A DNA stretch of 64,000 nt, taken from positions 2,688 through 66,687 of the forward strand of contig CAKZLM010000171.1 of NCBI GenBank assembly GCA_937126915.1. The letters are read 5' to 3'. Every line of letters starts with the position of its first letter. Position 1 is the first letter of the stretch. The position numbers were made by a program, and so were the translations under genes. Below the pieces are notes generated by a model. It saw only the letters and a program-made list of their open reading frames with translations. It did not search any database and was not told where the DNA came from. This document shows positions 4,798 through 39,768 of the stretch, piece after piece. This DNA comes from an uncultured Alphaproteobacteria bacterium (GTDB lineage Bacteria > Pseudomonadota > Alphaproteobacteria > Sphingomonadales > SMXR01).

Positions 4798-5430
4798 CTA
4801 AAATCCAAATATCTGGCCTGCATGATCAATTGCGGCACCCAAGTTGTCGCTCAATGTGCGGCCCGATTTAACCCGCGGCTTAAGACCGTGATCACCATCG
4901 TCAGCCCAAAATAGCTTAAGCGATGCGGGAAGATCCCATTGATCAACCTCTTCTTTTTTGCCGAAACTATCGCGCTCACCCTGAGAAATAACCAGCGGCA
5001 CCGTGATGCGAGATAAATGCTCAGTGCGAAGTTTTTCTGGCTTTCCGGGTGGATGGAAAGGGTAACCCAAGCACCAAACGCCTGCGATGATGCCGTCCTC
5101 AAGTAAGGCCAGATCCGCCGCCAACATTGACGCCATCCTGCCGCCCATTGATTTACCGCCAATGATAAGATTATCATGTGGCCAATCAGCTAGCACCGAT
5201 TGCCATGTGGTGAGTAAATGCGGTGCGCGTTGGGGCGGTTTTTTCTTCCCCGTTGCCACCATTTCAGCCATATAATCAAAATTAAAGCGCACCACATGAA
5301 CCCCCTTAGCAGCGATTTTTTCTGCCACCATGGTCATCCATTCATGGTCCATCGGCGCACCAGCGCCATGGGCTAAAATTAAGCGCGTATCAGCCTCTTT
5401 GGGGCCATTTTCTAGATAGTCTCTGGTCAT
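4798..5430 (-). CDS. Alpha/beta hydrolase (dienelactone-hydrolase / COG3571-like)
   Basis: Contains HGAGAPMD and nucleophile elbow GGKSMGGRMAS. I place the start at the ATG at 5430, preceded by GGGAGG. Its TAG stop lies 13 nt before the start of the amidohydrolase gene, suggesting an operon. Confidence 0.75.
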   Translation of the reverse strand: MTRDYLENGPKEADTRLILAHGAGAPMDHEWMTMVAEKIAAKGVHVVRFNFDYMAEMVATGKKKPPQRAPHLLTTWQSVLADWPHDNLIIGGKSMGGRMASMLAADLALLEDGIIAGVWCLGYPFHPPGKPEKLRTEHLSRITVPLVISQGERDSFGKKEEVDQWDLPASLKLFWADDGDHGLKPRVKSGRTLSDNLGAAIDHAGQIFGF

Positions 5431-5498
5431 ACATCCTCCCACCTCGTGATAGATTAGCAAAATTCAGGGCTATTGCTATGACTTATTCCGCTTTCCAT

Positions 5499-5531
5499 CA
5501 AAAAGGCACGATCATAAGAATGACCGTGCCT
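5499..5531 (-). terminator. Rho-independent terminator downstream of the holin gene
   Basis: On the minus strand GAGGCACGGTCAT-TCTT-ATGATCGTGCCTT is followed by TTTTGATGG. Confidence 0.6.
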
Positions 5532-5560
5532 CAATAAACAACGTCGTAACAGAGGGAGGC

Positions 5561-5974
5561 TTATTTAGCTTTACCTTGAATTTTTTCATACGATCTAAGT
5601 CCACTAAGACCTAACAAAGCCAATACCAATTCCATCATATGGTCGGTCACAATGGTGGGGGGCTTTACATCTATTTCCCAAAAAACGAAGGCCCATTCAG
5701 TGACAGGGTGACCAATAAAAGCCCACATCAATCCCACACCACACACCCAACCAATGAAAGGCCGCCACCCAGCTACAAATAAAGACCGGTGGCTGGCTTC
5801 AATTTTATTAATCTCCACCTGCGCTTTCCCCGGTTCTTGTAGCAGACGCACCATCATTTCTTTTTTGGTTAAACGCTCTTCATCACTGGTGAACAGGTTA
5901 TCAACCACATTGCCGATAGCCTCAATACCATCAATGGCGTTTCCAACTGGAAACAATTTTGCTAACAAACTCAT
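5561..5974 (-). CDS. Holin, 3-TM type (GTA_holin_3TM-like)
   Basis: A 137-aa ORF. It has a soluble N-terminal part and then INKIEASHRSLFVAGWRPFIGWVCGVGLMWAFIG, followed by 2-3 hydrophobic segments and a basic C-terminal tail. Its ATG overlaps the endolysin stop as ATGA. Confidence 0.7.
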   Translation of the reverse strand: MSLLAKLFPVGNAIDGIEAIGNVVDNLFTSDEERLTKKEMMVRLLQEPGKAQVEINKIEASHRSLFVAGWRPFIGWVCGVGLMWAFIGHPVTEWAFVFWEIDVKPPTIVTDHMMELVLALLGLSGLRSYEKIQGKAK

Positions 5975-6438
5975 CGCACTGTCTCCCGATCAAATCCCCC
6001 GCCAAATCCTTCTGGTAGACCTTTGTGGGTTAAGCCATGAAGCTTGGTTAACACCTGCTTTCGGTTGCCTGCTGGCTTTAGGGAGGCATGAATCCAACCT
6101 GATGCATGGGGGTTTTCAGGGTCGAAATATTCCAAGATCAATTGATCAAATTCGATATGGCGTTCCATCCATTGCGCCACCTCAAGTGGGCTGTAATGCG
6201 GCACGATAAAATCAACCGCCTGCCCCCTAATATGTTGGCTGGTATCTTTTGACCCCAATAAGCGGTTTAGAGCCAAACTACGGTATCCCGATGTTGGTGA
6301 AAAGGGTATGCCAAATTGCTGGCGCACAGGTTCTAACAAAAATTCTGCTACCCTGTGTAAGTGGCTGATGATGGCGTCAGATGGGACATTACGAATGTTA
6401 TGACGCTCAGCCAATTGGCTGCGGGTCAGTTCATCCAA
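5971..6438 (-). CDS. Peptidase M15 (D-Ala-D-Ala carboxypeptidase-like) cell-wall endolysin; the start is problematic
   Basis: Zn-ligand pattern SGYRS..N..GSKDTSQHIRGQAVDF ... WIHASL. The ORF track starts at TTG 6438, which has no SD. In-frame codons just upstream encode LSSHFT, preceded by AAGGAG-N5-ATG-TAA (6473-6457). See findings. Confidence 0.7.
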   Translation of the reverse strand: MDELTRSQLAERHNIRNVPSDAIISHLHRVAEFLLEPVRQQFGIPFSPTSGYRSLALNRLLGSKDTSQHIRGQAVDFIVPHYSPLEVAQWMERHIEFDQLILEYFDPENPHASGWIHASLKPAGNRKQVLTKLHGLTHKGLPEGFGGGFDRETVR

Positions 6439-6456
6439 GGTAAAATGACTGCTTAA

Positions 6457-6473
6457 TTACATGGTATCTCCTT
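6457..6473 (-). promoter_or_regulatory. Shine-Dalgarno plus ATG-TAA start-stop immediately upstream of, and in frame with, the endolysin ORF
   Basis: The minus strand reads AAGGAG (6473-6468) ATACC ATG (6462-6460) TAA (6459-6457), then TTA AGC AGT CAT TTT ACC TTG(6438). Confidence 0.6.
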
Positions 6474-6568
6474 TAACTATAAAGGTCTACACATGCGGTT
6501 TTTTAAATTCTTCTGATAACCAGAATGGTTATATATTTAAGAGAAAAAGTCAAGCTTTAAATCAGATC

Positions 6569-7654
6569 TTAAGACTTTTCTTCGCTGACTTGGGCCTCAG
6601 CTAAAAGGCGTTTTCGCTTGATCCACGCCCTGATCACCGCATCGGCAACGGTCGCCAATGGAATTGCAAAAAACACACCCCACAGGCCCCAAATGCCGCC
6701 AAAGAAAAGAATCGCTAAAATTATCGCATTGGGATGCAGTTTCACCACTTCTGAGAATAATAAAGGCGCTAGCAAGTTACCGTCTAAGGCTTGCAGAACT
6801 AGATAAACCCCAACAGCCACCGCTAAATCAGGACCAAAACCCCACTGAGCCAAGGCCACAATCGCCACCGGGAAGGTAACCGTTGCTGCGCCAATATAAG
6901 GGATAATAACACTAAGGCCCGTTAGCATGGCTAGAAAGGCTGCGAACCTAAGATCAATAATGCTGTAGGCTGCGAACGACACAAAGCCGACGATTAAAAT
7001 CTCATAAACCTTACCACGAGCATAATCGCCTGATTTTGCCAAAACGTCAGTCCACACTTCATTGGCTAATTCAACGTCGTTGGGCATAAAATCAGCGAAC
7101 CACGCCAAAATTTTGTCGCGGTCTTTGATGAAGAAAAACACCATCACCGGCACTAAAATTAAATAAACAATGATGGTGATAAGGCTGCCAATTTCACCCA
7201 CCGATGATTTGACCACCGATTGCCCCATAGCAATCATCTCATCACCCACTTGATCAAACAAACCGTTCAATTGTTGCGGGCTAATTATTTCAGGGTAATT
7301 CTGTTGTAAGGCCACCAATGTGGTTTGTAACTTTGTCACCATGCTTGGCATCTGACTGAAAAACTCGCCAAACTGACTGATAATGGGCGGCAAAATGCCC
7401 ACGATCGCCACAAAGGATATCAATAAAAACATAATAAAAGTGAGGGTGGTGGCAAGAATATTACGCATACCACGGGCGCGCAAAAACTGCGCCATGCCAT
7501 CTAATAAAAAGGCGATAACCACTGCGGCAATGGCAGGTGCCAACATGTCCCCAATGAGGGCAAGAGTAAGGAAAACCAGCACCAACAAAAGTGACAGAAC
7601 CACCATTTGCCGATCTGCTAATGTTCTTTTAAACCAATCGGTTATCACATTCAT
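6569..7654 (-). CDS. AI-2E family transporter (PerM/UPF0118 permease)
   Basis: A 361-aa polytopic membrane protein with about 8 hydrophobic segments and the family's typical C-terminal region (GGIWGLWGVFFAIPLA). Confidence 0.8.
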   Translation of the reverse strand: MNVITDWFKRTLADRQMVVLSLLLVLVFLTLALIGDMLAPAIAAVVIAFLLDGMAQFLRARGMRNILATTLTFIMFLLISFVAIVGILPPIISQFGEFFSQMPSMVTKLQTTLVALQQNYPEIISPQQLNGLFDQVGDEMIAMGQSVVKSSVGEIGSLITIIVYLILVPVMVFFFIKDRDKILAWFADFMPNDVELANEVWTDVLAKSGDYARGKVYEILIVGFVSFAAYSIIDLRFAAFLAMLTGLSVIIPYIGAATVTFPVAIVALAQWGFGPDLAVAVGVYLVLQALDGNLLAPLLFSEVVKLHPNAIILAILFFGGIWGLWGVFFAIPLATVADAVIRAWIKRKRLLAEAQVSEEKS

Positions 7655-15220: not shown

Positions 15221-15763
15221 ATGACTGAACGAACCAAAGAAACCAACTCAGAGACCGCTATCAAGGTGATCACCACTGATCGCTTTGAAGTGATTGTTTC
15301 TGCCTATGGTTCTGATCCTGATCATTGGCCCGATGAGGAACGAGCCGCCGCGCTATCTTTTGCCAAAACTGAGGCGGGCAAGGCCTTGTTGAGTGATGCT
15401 AAAAGCCTGGATCGATGTCTTGACCTTGTCGCGCTAAAACCCGCTGCTGTTGATGATGGCTATTTAGATCGTGTGATGCGCGCTGTTGATCATCTGCCAC
15501 CTGCCTTAGTAGCAGCCACTCAGCCAGCTGACAGCGACGATACTTCTGTTAGCTTTATAGACTATCTGAAAGAGATGCTTGGTGTTAGCCGCCTAACCAT
15601 GGCGATCAGAGCAGGCGCTTTAACGGTTGCTGGTTTGATGGGTATTGCCCTTGGTGCTAGCAACATCACAAGCACTGGTTACGCAACCGCAACAATTGAT
15701 GCCAGCCAACTAGCTTGGGACCAAATGGCGCCTATTGCGGATATTAAAACCATCAAAGAATAG
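15221..15763 (+). CDS. Putative anti-sigma factor, non-zinc type, single TM
   Basis: Lies 27 nt after the sigma gene. Its N-terminal segment is VSAYGSDPDHWPDEERAAA with no HxxxCxxC motif. One hydrophobic segment (LTMAIRAGALTVAGLMGIALG) is present. The call rests mainly on position and architecture. Confidence 0.5.
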   Translation: MTERTKETNSETAIKVITTDRFEVIVSAYGSDPDHWPDEERAAALSFAKTEAGKALLSDAKSLDRCLDLVALKPAAVDDGYLDRVMRAVDHLPPALVAATQPADSDDTSVSFIDYLKEMLGVSRLTMAIRAGALTVAGLMGIALGASNITSTGYATATIDASQLAWDQMAPIADIKTIKE

Positions 15764-16566: not shown

Positions 16567-16977
16567 CTATTTCTTTTGTGCATTCAACAAAAGCTGGACA
16601 ATACGTTCATGGGTCAATTTTTCAGGGGCAATTTTGTTTGTGCAAGAATATTTCAAGATCAAATCTAGGTTCTGAGGTGTGTCCATCACATAGGCCATCC
16701 ACCAATTATCGAAATCTCGCGCCATAATATCAACACAGCCTACCAAGACTACATCACTGTGGCGGGCATCTTGACAAATACGATGATATGTTTCACTGAC
16801 TTTTTTGCGCTCGCCTTCTAAAACTTGGATAAAATACTTTTTATAAAGCCATAATGCACCGGTAATAAAGTTTTTGGAATTATGCACATGAGCAGACTTT
16901 AAAATTGCATCTAAATCTGCGCCTTGATCACTATCAAAACTGCTATAATATGCTAATTGTGTTAATTGTGATGGCAT
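16567..16977 (-). CDS. Stand-alone BLUF domain protein (blue-light FAD sensor)
   Basis: A 136-aa ORF. QLAYYSS supplies the beta1 Tyr, ITGALW...YFIQVLEG the conserved Gln, then DARHSD and NWWMAY (Trp/Met region). Confidence 0.8.
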   Translation of the reverse strand: MPSQLTQLAYYSSFDSDQGADLDAILKSAHVHNSKNFITGALWLYKKYFIQVLEGERKKVSETYHRICQDARHSDVVLVGCVDIMARDFDNWWMAYVMDTPQNLDLILKYSCTNKIAPEKLTHERIVQLLLNAQKK

Positions 16978-21975: not shown

Positions 21976-22413
21976 ATGGCTTGGACTGACGACCGTATCG
22001 AAATTTTACGTAAATTATGGGATCAAGGCTTAACCGCCAGCCAGATCGCTAAGGAGCTTGGCGAGGGTGTTACCCGTAATGCTGTGATTGGTAAGGCACA
22101 CCGTCTGGGCCTTAAGTCGCGCCCGTCTCCGGTTAAGTCTGACAAAAAGAAAGCCGCCGCCAAACCGGCCGCCAAACCGGCACCGAAAAAGGTCGTCGCT
22201 AAAAAATCTAAGAAGATTCATCTTCTTGATTTAACCGAACGCACCTGCAAATGGCCTATTGGTCACCCCGGTGAAGAAGACTTCCACTTCTGCGGTAAAG
22301 AAAGCATTCAAGGTCATCCTTATTGCCAAGGCCACTGTGAAGAAGCTTACCAAGCCCAGCAACCGCGCAAAAGCCGCGCTGCTATGCAACAGGCCCCACG
22401 CATTATCCGTTAA
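21976..22413 (+). CDS. gcrA: GcrA cell-cycle regulator
   Basis: The N-terminus MAWTDDRIEILRKLWDQGLTASQIAKELGEGVTRNAVIGKAHRLGL is followed by a basic AKP linker and a conserved C-terminal CKWPIGHPGEEDFHFCG segment. Confidence 0.92.
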   Translation: MAWTDDRIEILRKLWDQGLTASQIAKELGEGVTRNAVIGKAHRLGLKSRPSPVKSDKKKAAAKPAAKPAPKKVVAKKSKKIHLLDLTERTCKWPIGHPGEEDFHFCGKESIQGHPYCQGHCEEAYQAQQPRKSRAAMQQAPRIIR

Positions 22414-26825: not shown

Positions 26826-29800
26826 ATGAGTTCTAACAAGAATCATAATGACTTTGAGCAATTTTTTGAACTATCGAAAGACCTGCTTTGTATCGCTGGA
26901 ACAGATGGTTTTTTTAAAAAGATTAATCATGCCTTTGTCGAACTTTTAAATTTCAGCAAGGAAGAATTATTTTCCAAACAATTTGTTGAATTTGTTCACC
27001 CCGATGATGTTGAGGGAACACTTAAACAGGTTGAGCGATTATCACAGGGTAAAGCCGTCGTTGACTTTGAAAACCGCTATCGTTGTAAGGATGGACAATA
27101 TCGTGCCATTTCTTGGTCTGCCCAACCCACCGCAGACAAAAAAAGACTGTTCGCTATTGGTCGCGATGTCACCAACGAACGCAATGCTCAAAGAGAGTTA
27201 AATCAACTAATTAGCGCCCTCAAAGAAACCACTATTTATGCCAAAACCGATAAAAAAGGCGTGATCCTTGATGTTAATCACAGATTGACCGAAGTTTCGG
27301 GCTATAGCCGGGAAGAACTGGTTGGTGAAACCCACGCCCTGTTAAATTCTGGCGTTCATGACAAGGCCTTTTTTAAAGATATGTGGCAAACCATTTCTTC
27401 TGGTAATGTTTGGTCAGGCATGATTGAAAACAAAGCCAAAGGTGGTCATCATTATTTCGTCAACAGCATCATCGTGCCGATTAAAAACTTTGCAGGCAAA
27501 ATTGAGAATTATATTGCCTTTAGGTTTGATGTAACCGACTATATTGAAGCCAAGGATGAATTACAAAAAACCCTTAAAATTCTTAATGAAACCAGCAGTG
27601 TGGCAAAGGTTGGCGGCTGGGAGCTGGATATAGCAACCGGTGATTTGTTCTGGACCGATGAGACCTTCCGCATTTTAGAAGTTAAAAAACAAGACAACCA
27701 ACGCCCAACCCTGCCTGAGGGGTTAGACCTTTTTACCGATGCCGCAAAACCGATTATTGATGAGGCCGTTCAACGCTGTATCGAGTATGGCGAACCTTAT
27801 TTCTTAGAGTTGGAAGCCTTAACCGCCAAAGGCAACCCACTTTGGGTTTACACCAATGGCGCTCCTAACTTTGTCGATGGTAAGGTTGTGTCTTTGTCAG
27901 GCACCATCCAAAATATTGATGATCGTAAAAAGGCTGAAATTGCCCTAGAGAAGAGCGAAAGTCGCTATCGTGGTATCGTAGAAAATACAGAAGATTTGAT
28001 CGCCATTACAGATGCCGATGGGAAAATTCTTTTCACCAACAGCATGGCAAACACACTGTTGGGTTTAACACCTGATGAAACCAACGGCTTGTCCGTTTAT
28101 CGTATTTTCCATAAAGACGACCGTGAAGCCTTCAGTGCTAGCTTAAGCAATGCCATTAAGGCAAAAGCACCCTCACGGCAACTTCAGTGCCGCCTTGTCG
28201 GAGCAAAAGGCAACGTCCGTGTGGTTTCATGGAACCTGCAAATAATCTATAATGATGATCAAACACCGTTCCAAATCATTGGTATTGGCCGTGACGTCAC
28301 CGACCAGCAAAAATTACAACAAGATCTTAAAAACGCCCTCGAGAAAGCCCAGAATGCTGACCGCGCCAAAACCGACTTTTTGGCCAATATGAGTCATGAA
28401 ATTAGAACCCCGATGAACGGCATTTTAATGTCACTTAATCTAACGCAAAAATCCGATGACCCCGCAAAGGTGGCGAAATTATTGAACACAGCCAATGCGT
28501 CAACCACGTCTTTGTTACAGGTTATTAATGATATTCTTGATTTTTCAAAATTAGAATCAGGGAAAGTGACAATTGAAAATGGTGCCTTTGACCCCAAAGA
28601 GCTGTTGGATCATATCACCGAACTTATGACCCTCGTTGCTGAAGACAAGGGTCTTTCCTTATCAACCACCCTATCTGATGCGCTCCATCAAACCATCGTC
28701 GGTGATAAAATTCGCCTTACTCAGGTGATCACCAATTTTGTCTCTAACGCGATTAAATTCTCTAAGACTGGTACAATAAAGATTAACGCCACCATGGTTG
28801 AAGGGGATAACCCGCGCTTTAGAGTGGATGTCACAGATTGCGGCCCTGGCTTATCACAAGCACAACAGAAACAACTGTTCAAACGCTTTAGCCAATTAGC
28901 GCAAGATCGCAAACAAGCCACCTCGGGTACAGGGCTTGGCCTTGCCATTTCCAAACAATTGATCGACCTAATGGAGGGTCAGATTGGCGTCACCAGCGAT
29001 GGTAAATTCGGCTGCACTTTCTGGTTTGAAGTGCCCCTTGTTTTAGCGGCCGACCAGACAACACAATCAAACAATGATGACAACATTAGCCAGCTGGATC
29101 AGCAATTACATATTCTTTTGGTGGAAGATGTCGACTTTAACCGTGAGCTTGTAACCATGCTGCTGGAAATGCAGGGCCATAAGGTAACAAGCGCCGTCAA
29201 TGGCTATCTTGCCCTTGATATATTGCTCAATCAAAAAGCCACCTTTGACCTTATTTTAATGGATAACCACATGCCCATGATGACGGGCATTCAAGCCACA
29301 TCCACCCTGCGGGCCAGTCGAAACCAAAACAATAATATTCCCATAATCGCCCTTACAGCTGATGTTTTGGCAGAACGCAAAGAAGAATTGTTCGCAGCTG
29401 GGGTCAATGGATTTATTGCCAAGCCCGTTAACGATGCTGATTTAAAAAATGAAATAAACCGTGTGATGTCCTCTGGCCCTGTCTCTGTTACCAAGTCAGA
29501 CGACAATGACTCGCTTTATTCATTAATCTATATCAGTCGACGTTTAAGCGACGACCTTAATATCATTGAACTGTTGAAAAAAGCCCGCACCCTGAATGAT
29601 AATAACAATATCACTGGCGTATTATGGGAAGTGGGTGACTTTTTTGTCCAAACCCTAGAGGGAAAGCGATCAAAGGTTTACGAAACCATGGCACGCATTT
29701 GCCAAAGTGACTTACACACTGACATTCAAATCGTTTTTGCTGAAAACATTGCCGCACGCAAATTTGCGCAATGGTCCATGGCCTTTCCTGATAATGCCCT

Positions 29801-29930
29801 AGATATTCACGATCTTTTGACGCGGCGCTTTGGTCAAGCCGATGATCTTTATGCCATCAACCGCGAACAATTAAGCCGCTATATTTTTGATTCGGCTCAA
29901 CACACTGAATTTTATGAGGAAGGGGAATAA
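26826..29930 (+). CDS. Soluble hybrid sensor histidine kinase: PAS x4, HisKA, HATPase_c, REC and a C-terminal BLUF
   Basis: A 1034-aa ORF. H-box MSHEIRTPMNG (His codon 28395-28397). ATPase boxes DCGPGL / GTGLGLAISK. Receiver HILLVEDVDFN..LILMDNHMP (Asp codon 29262-29264). The C-terminal BLUF motifs are listed in the next feature. Confidence 0.9.
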   Translation: MSSNKNHNDFEQFFELSKDLLCIAGTDGFFKKINHAFVELLNFSKEELFSKQFVEFVHPDDVEGTLKQVERLSQGKAVVDFENRYRCKDGQYRAISWSAQPTADKKRLFAIGRDVTNERNAQRELNQLISALKETTIYAKTDKKGVILDVNHRLTEVSGYSREELVGETHALLNSGVHDKAFFKDMWQTISSGNVWSGMIENKAKGGHHYFVNSIIVPIKNFAGKIENYIAFRFDVTDYIEAKDELQKTLKILNETSSVAKVGGWELDIATGDLFWTDETFRILEVKKQDNQRPTLPEGLDLFTDAAKPIIDEAVQRCIEYGEPYFLELEALTAKGNPLWVYTNGAPNFVDGKVVSLSGTIQNIDDRKKAEIALEKSESRYRGIVENTEDLIAITDADGKILFTNSMANTLLGLTPDETNGLSVYRIFHKDDREAFSASLSNAIKAKAPSRQLQCRLVGAKGNVRVVSWNLQIIYNDDQTPFQIIGIGRDVTDQQKLQQDLKNALEKAQNADRAKTDFLANMSHEIRTPMNGILMSLNLTQKSDDPAKVAKLLNTANASTTSLLQVINDILDFSKLESGKVTIENGAFDPKELLDHITELMTLVAEDKGLSLSTTLSDALHQTIVGDKIRLTQVITNFVSNAIKFSKTGTIKINATMVEGDNPRFRVDVTDCGPGLSQAQQKQLFKRFSQLAQDRKQATSGTGLGLAISKQLIDLMEGQIGVTSDGKFGCTFWFEVPLVLAADQTTQSNNDDNISQLDQQLHILLVEDVDFNRELVTMLLEMQGHKVTSAVNGYLALDILLNQKATFDLILMDNHMPMMTGIQATSTLRASRNQNNNIPIIALTADVLAERKEELFAAGVNGFIAKPVNDADLKNEINRVMSSGPVSVTKSDDNDSLYSLIYISRRLSDDLNIIELLKKARTLNDNNNITGVLWEVGDFFVQTLEGKRSKVYETMARICQSDLHTDIQIVFAENIAARKFAQWSMAFPDNALDIHDLLTRRFGQADDLYAINREQLSRYIFDSAQHTEFYEEGE
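29521..29800 (+). other. BLUF domain at the C-terminus of the hybrid kinase (domain-level feature)
   Basis: SLYSLIYISRR...NNITGVLWEVGDFFVQTLEGKRSKVYETMARICQSDLHTD...FAQWSMAF. The Tyr, Gln and Trp-x-Met positions typical of BLUF are all present. Confidence 0.75.
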
Positions 29931-30015
29931 TCACCCGCCATTTAAGTTTCGATGCCCCATCTTATGCTGCTTAGCCTTCTACAAAATGTGCTTGTTAAAT
30001 GCACACAAAGATATC

Positions 30016-30837
30016 ATGATGAAAAAAAGATATAGCCCTCTTAGAAATGATGCCAAATTGAAAAAAGCCCTAAAATACGCTGCTACATCCCTGTTGATGT
30101 CTCTAAGTTTTGCAATCACACCGCTTTTCGCTCTGGATGAAGAACCGATCATTTTTGGTACCAGCTTTAGATTGGCCGAACAATCGCGCGACTTAAGCAA
30201 GGCTATTATGAGCAAGTTTTGTCAGAGCGAAAATTTAAGCTGCGACATACGCTTTCTACCGCAAGAACGGCTCAACCGTGACTTTTCGCTAAATATTATC
30301 GATATTTTACTGTTCCGCGATCATGTCGTCGATGATCGCCACCGTCAGACGTCATACCCGTTTGCCGCAACCACGCTTTTGGCCATTGAATATCCAAAAG
30401 CAGAAAACAAAACAGCCACTTTCACTACTGATGGGATTAATCCCCAAGCAACCATTGCATGGCAGCGCGGCGATAACCTTGAAGGTACGCTGAATTTTCA
30501 GGGCTCTGTGATCGAGATAGAGGGCTTTGAACAAGGACTTCAATTGGTAAGAGCTGGCAGAATCAGTGCCTATTTTGAATGGAATACCGAGATACTGATC
30601 CGCACCACTTATGAAGACTTAAGCCAGCAAGGTTTTATCTTAACGCCCATCATTGAAGACGTTCCGCTTTACCCTATGCGGAACCTAGAAGAAGAAAACA
30701 TCATCATCATTGACCTTTTAAGCCAGTGGTATATCGGCATGCATGAAAAAGGCGAACTTTTACCCATATATGAAAGATTTGGCCTAAAAGACGCCTACCC
30801 CTTCCACAAAAACTGGCAAAAATGGCTTAAAGACTAA
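30016..30837 (+). CDS. Secreted substrate-binding-protein-like protein (divergent type-3 SBP fold)
   Basis: The ATG at 30016 begins MMKKRYSPL.. with a signal-like LLMSLSFAITPLFA. The rest has a weak bilobed SBP-like pattern. The ORF-track start at 29887 overlaps the kinase 3' end and is unlikely. Confidence 0.45.
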   Translation: MMKKRYSPLRNDAKLKKALKYAATSLLMSLSFAITPLFALDEEPIIFGTSFRLAEQSRDLSKAIMSKFCQSENLSCDIRFLPQERLNRDFSLNIIDILLFRDHVVDDRHRQTSYPFAATTLLAIEYPKAENKTATFTTDGINPQATIAWQRGDNLEGTLNFQGSVIEIEGFEQGLQLVRAGRISAYFEWNTEILIRTTYEDLSQQGFILTPIIEDVPLYPMRNLEEENIIIIDLLSQWYIGMHEKGELLPIYERFGLKDAYPFHKNWQKWLKD

Positions 30838-39348: not shown

Positions 39349-39666
39349 TTATTTGTTTTGTTCAATCCACGCCTGAATTTCAGACTTTGGCTTGGCGCCA
39401 ACGATGGTCGACACCGCTTTACCGCCTTTAAACATGATCATGGTTGGAATACCACGTACACCAAATTTGGTTGGTGCTTCTGGGTTTTGGTCAATGTTTA
39501 CTTTAGCGATGGTCACATCTGATAACTCGTCAGAAAGTTCTTCCAAAGACGGGCCAATTTGCTTACAAGGCCCGCACCATTCAGCCCAAAAATCAACCAC
39601 GATTGGTTTGTCAGAGCCTAATACGTCAGAATCAAAGTTAGCGTCGGTAATTTGGGTGGTTGGCAT
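39349..39666 (-). CDS. trxA: Thioredoxin
   Basis: A 105-aa ORF with the WCGPC active site. Confidence 0.95.
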
Positions 39667-39768
39667 AATAAATCCTTCATCACTTATGGTCAGCAGAGAG
39701 GGGCTGTTCGTTGCTATCGTCCCCTTTTATCATTCTTGCCCTTAAAGTAGGTATGCAAACGTCATTCG

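Follow-up and report, generated by a model that had tools for sequence, protein, structure and literature searches.

An apparently domesticated endolysin–holin operon of Emcibacterales-like alphaproteobacteria keeps its holin where the endolysin is stopped or deleted

Release of RcGTA, the gene transfer agent (GTA) of Rhodobacter capsulatus, requires an unlinked endolysin–holin pair, rcc00555/rcc00556, for which vertical inheritance and local synteny are described in Rhodobacterales (PMC5026251). The pair is switched on by phosphorylated CtrA (CtrA-P) and GafA from a promoter with putative CtrA half-sites only (PMC9638019), and rcc00555 is a putative lysozyme (PMC3423380). In Caulobacter crescentus, LypABC likewise supplies a GTA-linked lysis function that is host-encoded outside the head-tail cluster, as we propose for the locus described here, although it is a CARD-NLR-like system whose proteins are unrelated to this locus (PMC13236601). 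Here we describe an endolysin–holin operon in a 64-kb stretch of DNA from an uncultured alphaproteobacterium (contig CAKZLM010000171.1; the whole stretch is hereafter the window). The original prediction for this DNA, made from its letters alone, suggested that the operon may be the lysis module of a GTA, or a domesticated lysis or autolysis device, rather than a prophage remnant, and its account of rcc00555/rcc00556 as an unlinked pair needed for GTA release is borne out by the published work (PMC5026251).

Holins of the window's family, PF11351, are also known from phages. TeaA of Vibrio phage ICP1, a PF11351 member, was identified as that phage's holin, with membrane permeabilisation or lysis reported on its expression (PMC7182436), and in the cassettes of ICP1, Methylophilales phage MEP301, Paracoccus phage ParMal1 and the Roseobacter CRP phages an endolysin gene lies immediately upstream of the holin; in MEP301, a gene annotated peptidase M15A is located at the same place as the holin. 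These cassettes sit among terminase and tail-fibre genes, whereas the window's pair lacks phage genes nearby and keeps its synteny from one bacterial genus to another. The ChiWXYZ system of Serratia marcescens (type 10 secretion: holin, L-Ala-D-Glu endopeptidase and spanins) is likewise a chromosomal combination of holin and M15-type zinc peptidase, put to host use in Serratia. The resemblance of the window's peptidase to ChiX is however insignificant, and the window's operon has neither spanin genes nor an adjacent gene for secreted cargo. Like rcc00555/rcc00556, the window's operon has the order endolysin then holin, is unlinked to phage or GTA structural genes, lies in housekeeping surroundings and is vertically inherited with local synteny, and its holin family is described in Pfam as a holin 'for gene-transfer release'. 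The host belongs to a different order, the flanks are an AI-2E transporter gene and hydrolase genes in the window versus cycJ and a heme lyase gene at rcc00555/rcc00556, and the start of the endolysin is disrupted, unlike in the Rhodobacter cassette. According to the original prediction, rcc00556 would itself be a PF11351 member. The features of the operon are:

5498–5532, minus strand: intrinsic terminator, a 13-bp hairpin at 5503–5532 followed by a U-run, from sequence and RNA folding
5561–5974, minus strand: holin gene, 137 residues, PF11351 (GTA_holin_3TM) and phrog_3427
5971–6438, minus strand: present-day open reading frame (ORF) of the M15 peptidoglycan peptidase (endolysin), starting at TTG and encoding 155 residues, PF08291 and phrog_894
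6457–6474, minus strand: ancestral endolysin start, with ribosome-binding site (RBS) aaaggaga at 6467–6474, ATG at 6460–6462 and TAA at 6457–6459, from sequence and homologue alignment
6517–6531, minus strand: palindromic operator-like element TAACCA-TTC-TGGTTA, conserved upstream of related modules
6549–6554, minus strand: -35-like hexamer CTTGAC of the module promoter, within the 130-bp gap after the AI-2E gene
6569–7654, minus strand: AI-2E family transporter gene (PF01594, E=8e-63), the conserved neighbour, given as context only

We consider it probable, if only just, that this is a phage-derived endolysin–holin operon fixed as a vertically inherited chromosomal module in marine, Emcibacterales-like alphaproteobacteria, where it would most plausibly release RcGTA-like particles. 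The end of the M15 ORF and the start of the holin gene share a 4-base ATGA overlap at 5971–5974, and 7 nt ahead of the holin ATG lies a Shine-Dalgarno sequence belonging to the holin itself (GGGAGA, 5982–5987). The terminator, missed by a simple consensus scan, was confirmed by folding (centroid -20.6 kcal/mol, z = -3.5, with 0/200 shuffles equally stable). The pair is flanked by Abhydrolase_11, amidohydrolase and AI-2E transporter genes, and among the approximately 50 ORFs of the window annotated with Pfam, which include ThrRS, GcrA, AddAB, RpsA, PyrF, AhcY, a ChvG/ChvI-like pair, PckA and further housekeeping genes, there was no gene for a capsid, tail, terminase, integrase or repressor. The guanine-cytosine content of the pair (0.45–0.47) equals that of its flanks, with no composition anomaly. 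The orphan M15–holin pair with its overlap, the terminator (placed by the original prediction at 5499–5531) and the ordinary flanks free of phage genes had all been described beforehand and were recovered here.

Both proteins matched, above threshold, the families expected for them. The holin matched PF11351 with E=4.7e-15 and 56.6 bits (cut-off 24.8), covering 4–117 of the 123 profile positions, and the PHROG 'holin' family phrog_3427 with 8e-30. Its homologues number 4105, with 45 columns invariant among 26 of them, and the closest named ones are the '3TM-type holin' proteins of Paremcibacter congregatus (63%), Emcibacter nanhaiensis (58%) and Govanella unica (56%). Membership of PF11351 was thus as predicted; the three transmembrane segments also predicted were confirmed neither by hydropathy, which gives a strong segment at ~65–90, a moderate one at ~107–127 and an amphipathic N-terminal stretch of ~60 residues containing acidic residues, nor by the AlphaFold model, which has helices at 48–98 and 110–133 (mean predicted local distance difference test score, pLDDT, 74). 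The '3-TM' is the name of the family, and for this holin one strong and one moderate membrane helix are predicted. A sequence search of the PDB with the holin returned no matches, and NCBIfam gave no usable name for it, nor for the gene c8 and the group E endolysin introduced below.

The M15 ORF matched PF08291 (Peptidase_M15_3) with E=1.5e-14 and 54.4 bits (cut-off 23.2), and the PHROG 'endolysin' family phrog_894 with 3.6e-29. It keeps the zinc-ligand motifs, H-x6-D (SQHIRGQAVD) and a distal histidine (WIH), and none of H75, D82 and H123 varies among 45 homologues. Its AlphaFold model (pLDDT 93.8) most closely resembles a Streptomyces zinc DD-peptidase (1LBU; Foldseek E=7e-6, template-modelling score 0.59), with LdcB, VanY and the phage endolysin LysB4 as the next matches; a PDB sequence search gave only two weak matches (E ~1), one of them ChiX. 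The protein has no signal peptide, and its access to the wall would therefore depend on a holin. Both proteins have close relatives in phages. The holin is 33–46% identical to copies in isolated phages and up to 55–56% identical to copies on IMG/VR contigs, where they sit beside terminase, tail-fibre and endolysin genes, and the peptidase shares 42–46% identity with endolysins from phages of Pelagibacter, Burkholderia and Caulobacter.

Alignment of the peptidase with its homologues revealed that the M15 ORF as listed, correctly identified in the original prediction, starts at a TTG (6438) that is not the start used by the family, and that a knockout of the true start had been overlooked. In 29/29 aligned homologues the protein begins M-[KHRQ]-LS-x-HF-[TS]-L-x-EL, and the corresponding DNA in the window reads aaggagatacc ATG TAA TTA AGC AGT CAT TTT ACC TTG. 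An in-frame TAA (6457–6459) thus forms codon 2, directly after an ATG (6460–6462) with a good RBS, as a 'start-stop' or nonsense mutation. The sole remaining start is the TTG 8 codons downstream, which has no Shine-Dalgarno sequence; a protein made from it would lack the conserved LSSHFT segment, a segment that the model places with pLDDT ~95. A sequencing error is unlikely, because an ENA metagenome contig (L087) has the identical ATG-TAA sequence; it is 99.5% identical to the window over 15 kb, with 74 differences and 0 in the operon. The two assemblies may, however, sample one population. Beyond the TAA the ORF is intact. Because it keeps every family-invariant residue, the lesion appears to be either recent or tolerated through low-level re-initiation.

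In the nearest relative, contig L086, which has the same flanks, the endolysin is deleted to an 18-codon mini-ORF (MRMNKHSHLGVHPSGGEV*) at L086:343–399. The deletion is in frame and spares the RBS and ATG of the mini-ORF as well as its ATGA overlap with the holin, an arrangement that would preserve translational coupling to the holin. The holins of the window and L086 share 91% identity, more than the neighbouring hydrolases do (80% and 87%). As dS is saturated in this comparison, we used the proportions of nonsynonymous and synonymous differences, pN and pS; pN is 0.067 and pS, itself saturated, is 0.85, giving pN/pS ~0.08. These data show that the holin is strongly conserved under purifying selection even where its endolysin is deleted or stopped. 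This wider pattern, in which selection retains the holin whether or not an endolysin lies beside it, is the more interesting result.

To place the operon among its relatives, we scanned for the holin with one genome per species, which gave 461 relatives, and clustered the gene neighbours of the best 80. These fall into the following groups:

Group A, ~22 loci: Emcibacter, Paremcibacter and Kordiimonas, with a divergent AI-2E gene, the ~200-residue c8, M15, holin and an AsmA-like gene
Group B, 3 loci: the window's type, with AI-2E, M15 and holin
Group C, 7 loci: the same AI-2E context with holin and no M15
Group D, 7 loci: EAL-like, PTPS, M15 and holin
Group E, 5 loci: phrog_465-type endolysin and holin
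Group F, 11 loci: Parvibaculales, with genes for the large and small subunits of ribonucleotide reductase (RNR), sometimes a glutathione S-transferase (GST) gene, then holin, with no endolysin
Other, the remainder of the best 80: prophage-like contexts, many of them gammaproteobacterial

In a neighbour-joining tree groups A–E form one clade and group F a second, with the prophage-like copies outside both. In relatives the M15–holin pair is syntenic: it adjoins an AI-2E gene in genomes of Paremcibacter, Emcibacter and Kordiimonas and in many metagenome-assembled genomes (MAGs), and a 66%-identical metagenome contig (L003) is fully collinear with the window (PilZ, FKBP, SDR, AI-2E, M15, holin, Abhydrolase_11, amidohydrolase). 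Within its own clade the holin stands without an adjacent endolysin in 8 loci, including L086, and another 5 pair it with a phrog_465 endolysin; elsewhere, the gene upstream of the holin encodes an amidase, a transglycosylase, a lysozyme or an M15 endolysin. The deletion in L086, together with groups C, E and F, shows that endolysins are exchanged or lost while the holin persists.

These loci have further features. In 29 loci an AI-2E gene lies beside the module. Its direction is that of the module in the window's clade, where the AI-2E genes are 47–77% identical, whereas in Emcibacter and Paremcibacter it is divergent, and identity in the Emcibacter clade is only 21–33%. The conserved gene c8, absent from the window, is the first gene of a c8–M15–holin operon in L006 (6862–7542), L001 (8955–9557) and ~20 other Emcibacter, Paremcibacter and Kordiimonas loci. 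It encodes ~200–226 residues without a match in Pfam, PHROG, NCBIfam or PADLOC, and might act in regulation or as an accessory to lysis. In group F (L049, L051–L053, L055, L061, L063, L064 and L072–L074, from Parvibaculales, PS1 and Rhodobiaceae) the holin directly follows the RNR subunit genes, with or without GST, behind a conserved upstream element of its own, TTTATCCCCGC; L072 has two holin copies in tandem. The MAG P01_A01_bin.16 carries two holin copies of the window's clade (L011 and L020), one chromosomal with a phrog_465-type endolysin and the other among small same-strand ORFs in a prophage-like setting.

The promoter region is conserved along with the holin. The pattern CTTGAC-N19-ACYATnT occurs in the window and in L086, L003, L046, L066 and L036, and in the window the TAACCA-TTC-TGGTTA palindrome overlaps the -10 region. 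A related element, (T/A)(A/G)(A/C)(C/T)-N5-GG(T/A)(A/T), lies 44–144 nt upstream of the first gene in 15/17 loci of groups B, C and D, a purely descriptive count given that the pattern was built from those same 17 loci, against a background of 0.19 per 200 nt. It is found in two different genomic contexts, sometimes as two copies. Across the window the exact palindrome occurs only at 6517–6531, and the looser pattern is not enriched (4 matches vs 2.6 expected). TAACC-N5-GGTTA travels with the module across contexts as a putative module-specific regulatory element. The window's copy contains TAACCAT, which is 7/8 bases of the Caulobacter CtrA half-site TTAACCAT, and the promoter also carries GTAAC as a CtrA half-site-like sequence. 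Reading the palindrome as a CtrA box was rejected, as it is an inverted and not a direct repeat, and an RpoH-type promoter (CTTG-N17-18-CYTATNT) was rejected because most loci in the clade of the window have a spacing of 19–21 nt. An Rfam scan of positions 5300–6900 gave nothing near threshold.

The leaders of other loci have features of their own. In group A the promoter upstream of c8 (e.g. L015, L021 and L001) is nearly invariant, tTCTTGnTTTGTTCTTATTTATaCCTATTATAGG, with a CCTAT-T-ATAGG palindrome over the -10 region and a CcrM-type GANTC site 8–12 nt downstream in 13/17 loci, which hints at cell-cycle (CcrM/GcrA) control of group A. In L036 a ~95-residue coiled-coil ORF with a C-terminal transmembrane segment (L036:1798–2085) lies between the conserved promoter and the holin, and the L023 and L066 leaders have terminator-like hairpins in the same interval; the ORF may be antiholin-like and the hairpins may be attenuators.

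These data can be assembled into a working model. A dedicated promoter would be held in check through the TAACC-N5-GGTTA operator by a presumed regulator and, on release, would produce a bicistronic mRNA ending at the 5498–5532 terminator. The holin would accumulate in the inner membrane and open it, whereupon the signal-less, cytoplasmic M15 peptidase could reach the peptidoglycan, cut stem peptides and lyse the cell. Such a system would amount to regulated, altruistic lysis of a sub-population, most plausibly for the release of RcGTA-like particles. In the window's genome the endolysin would be either dead or made at a low level, as an N-truncated protein, from the downstream TTG, and the holin, with its own RBS, would be the component under selection.

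The part of this model that invokes a GTA is plausible but unproven, and is where the original prediction fares unevenly: a domesticated device in place of a prophage remnant is well supported, whereas a GTA lysis module, though the most plausible use, is what we infer. In favour of the link, Paremcibacter congregatus ZYLT and Parvibaculum lavamentivorans are among 293 genomes with 14/14 GTA head-tail genes (Kogay et al. 2024, PMC10883770 Table S3). Paremcibacter congregatus therefore carries the syntenic M15–holin pair as well as a complete RcGTA-like head-tail cluster, to which accession numbers suggest its holin is unlinked, and a GTA bearer likewise belongs to the holin clade of the Parvibaculales. 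A number of observations weigh against the reading as a GTA release cassette. The window contains no GTA structural genes, gafA or ctrA; no full CtrA box (TTAA-N7-TTAA) is present at the promoter; and no lipobox or spanin-like ORF was found in or downstream of the operon. The endolysin is an M15 zinc peptidase that is not homologous to the lysozyme-like rcc00555, and with its start disrupted the cassette in this genome is at best attenuated and may not lyse cells at all. Kordiimonas pumila was screened and is absent from the 293 GTA representatives, yet a Kordiimonas MAG carries the module, making Kordiimonas a possible counter-example. Finally, Caulobacter has no holin–endolysin genes and releases its GTA via LypABC (PMC13236601), so that the presence of a GTA is no sign that a pair of this kind is in use.

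The persistence of the holin raises other explanations. Of these, we tentatively entertain as possible that selection acts on the PF11351 holin and not on the pair. The holin would then be an ancient membrane 'kill switch' under host control, served by an operator of its own and kept in several alphaproteobacterial orders, and the endolysins beside it (M15, phrog_465-type or lysozyme) would be swapped or dropped. The window would catch such a loss in progress, with its stop at codon 2 and the in-frame deletion in L086. A related proposal, which we regard as rather unlikely, gives the holin a host role unrelated to GTAs, with the adjacent endolysin as an optional accessory; examples of such a role are programmed cell death, the release of DNA, vesicles or public goods, and holin/peptidase export akin to type 10 secretion. 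It draws on the 8 endolysin-free loci and the 5 with a phrog_465 endolysin in the holin's own clade, on the Parvibaculales, where in 11/11 loci the holin follows the RNR genes with no endolysin, and on the purifying selection that persists after deletion or stopping of the endolysin; one of the two weak PDB matches, ChiX, is the M15-type peptidase of a holin-dependent secretion system in Serratia, which also points this way. Yet a match at E ~1 is insignificant, no conserved cargo or spanin-like gene adjoins the module, its neighbours differ between clades, and an unlinked endolysin could serve the holin-only genomes.

Simple decay is harder to reconcile with the data. The nonsense codon at endolysin position 2, the deletion of the endolysin in a sister lineage and the close phage relatives of both proteins are what a functionless remnant of an old prophage lysis cassette would leave, the stop being the first visible step of its erosion. 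Against this, the synteny is older than genera, the holin has pN/pS ~0.08, the remaining M15 ORF is intact with all its family-invariant residues, the L086 deletion is in frame and spares the RBS, ATG and ATGA coupling, promoter and operator are conserved, and there is neither a composition anomaly nor another phage gene in the window; we therefore consider erosion improbable. The view of the module as domesticated thus rests on synteny across genera, host-like base composition, purifying selection on the holin and a conserved promoter and operator. The holin, as a small membrane protein that is lethal, is placed under a tightly conserved operator and stands alone in some lineages, would also suit the membrane-killing effector of an anti-phage abortive-infection system. 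This we judge highly improbable, as PADLOC found no defence match for the holin, the M15 peptidase, their neighbours or c8, and the module has housekeeping neighbours, lacks a partner of the sensor or NTPase kind and does not lie in a defence island.

If the preferred reading as a GTA-releasing module holds, it would broaden the means by which GTAs leave the cell. To our knowledge GTA exit is known in only two models, the holin–lysozyme pair of Rhodobacter and the CARD-NLR-like LypABC of Caulobacter. In the early-branching Emcibacterales, a third lysis module, passed on vertically, would help to date the recruitment of lysis genes to GTAs, and would join a holin of the PF11351 'gene-transfer release' family to a different or dispensable endolysin. 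Should the holin alone prove to be the functional unit, GTA release or other altruistic lysis could run on a holin by itself or with unlinked host wall hydrolases. Repeated endolysin loss combined with strong holin conservation is a testable hint that it is the holin that does the essential job; the conserved operator provides a handle for finding its regulator, and Paremcibacter congregatus ZYLT, a cultivable relative, is a concrete target for knockouts.

Elsewhere in the window, three ORFs of 316, 117 and 180 residues (29887–30837, 39392–39745 and 15221–15763, respectively) have no Pfam match. A GcrA cell-cycle regulator gene lies at 21976–22413 (PF07750, 8e-44), showing that the alphaproteobacterial GcrA/CcrM circuitry is present in the organism. 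The window also encodes a stand-alone BLUF blue-light sensor (16567–16977) and a 1034-residue hybrid kinase (26826–29930) that combines PAS, HisKA, HATPase and REC domains with a C-terminal BLUF domain.

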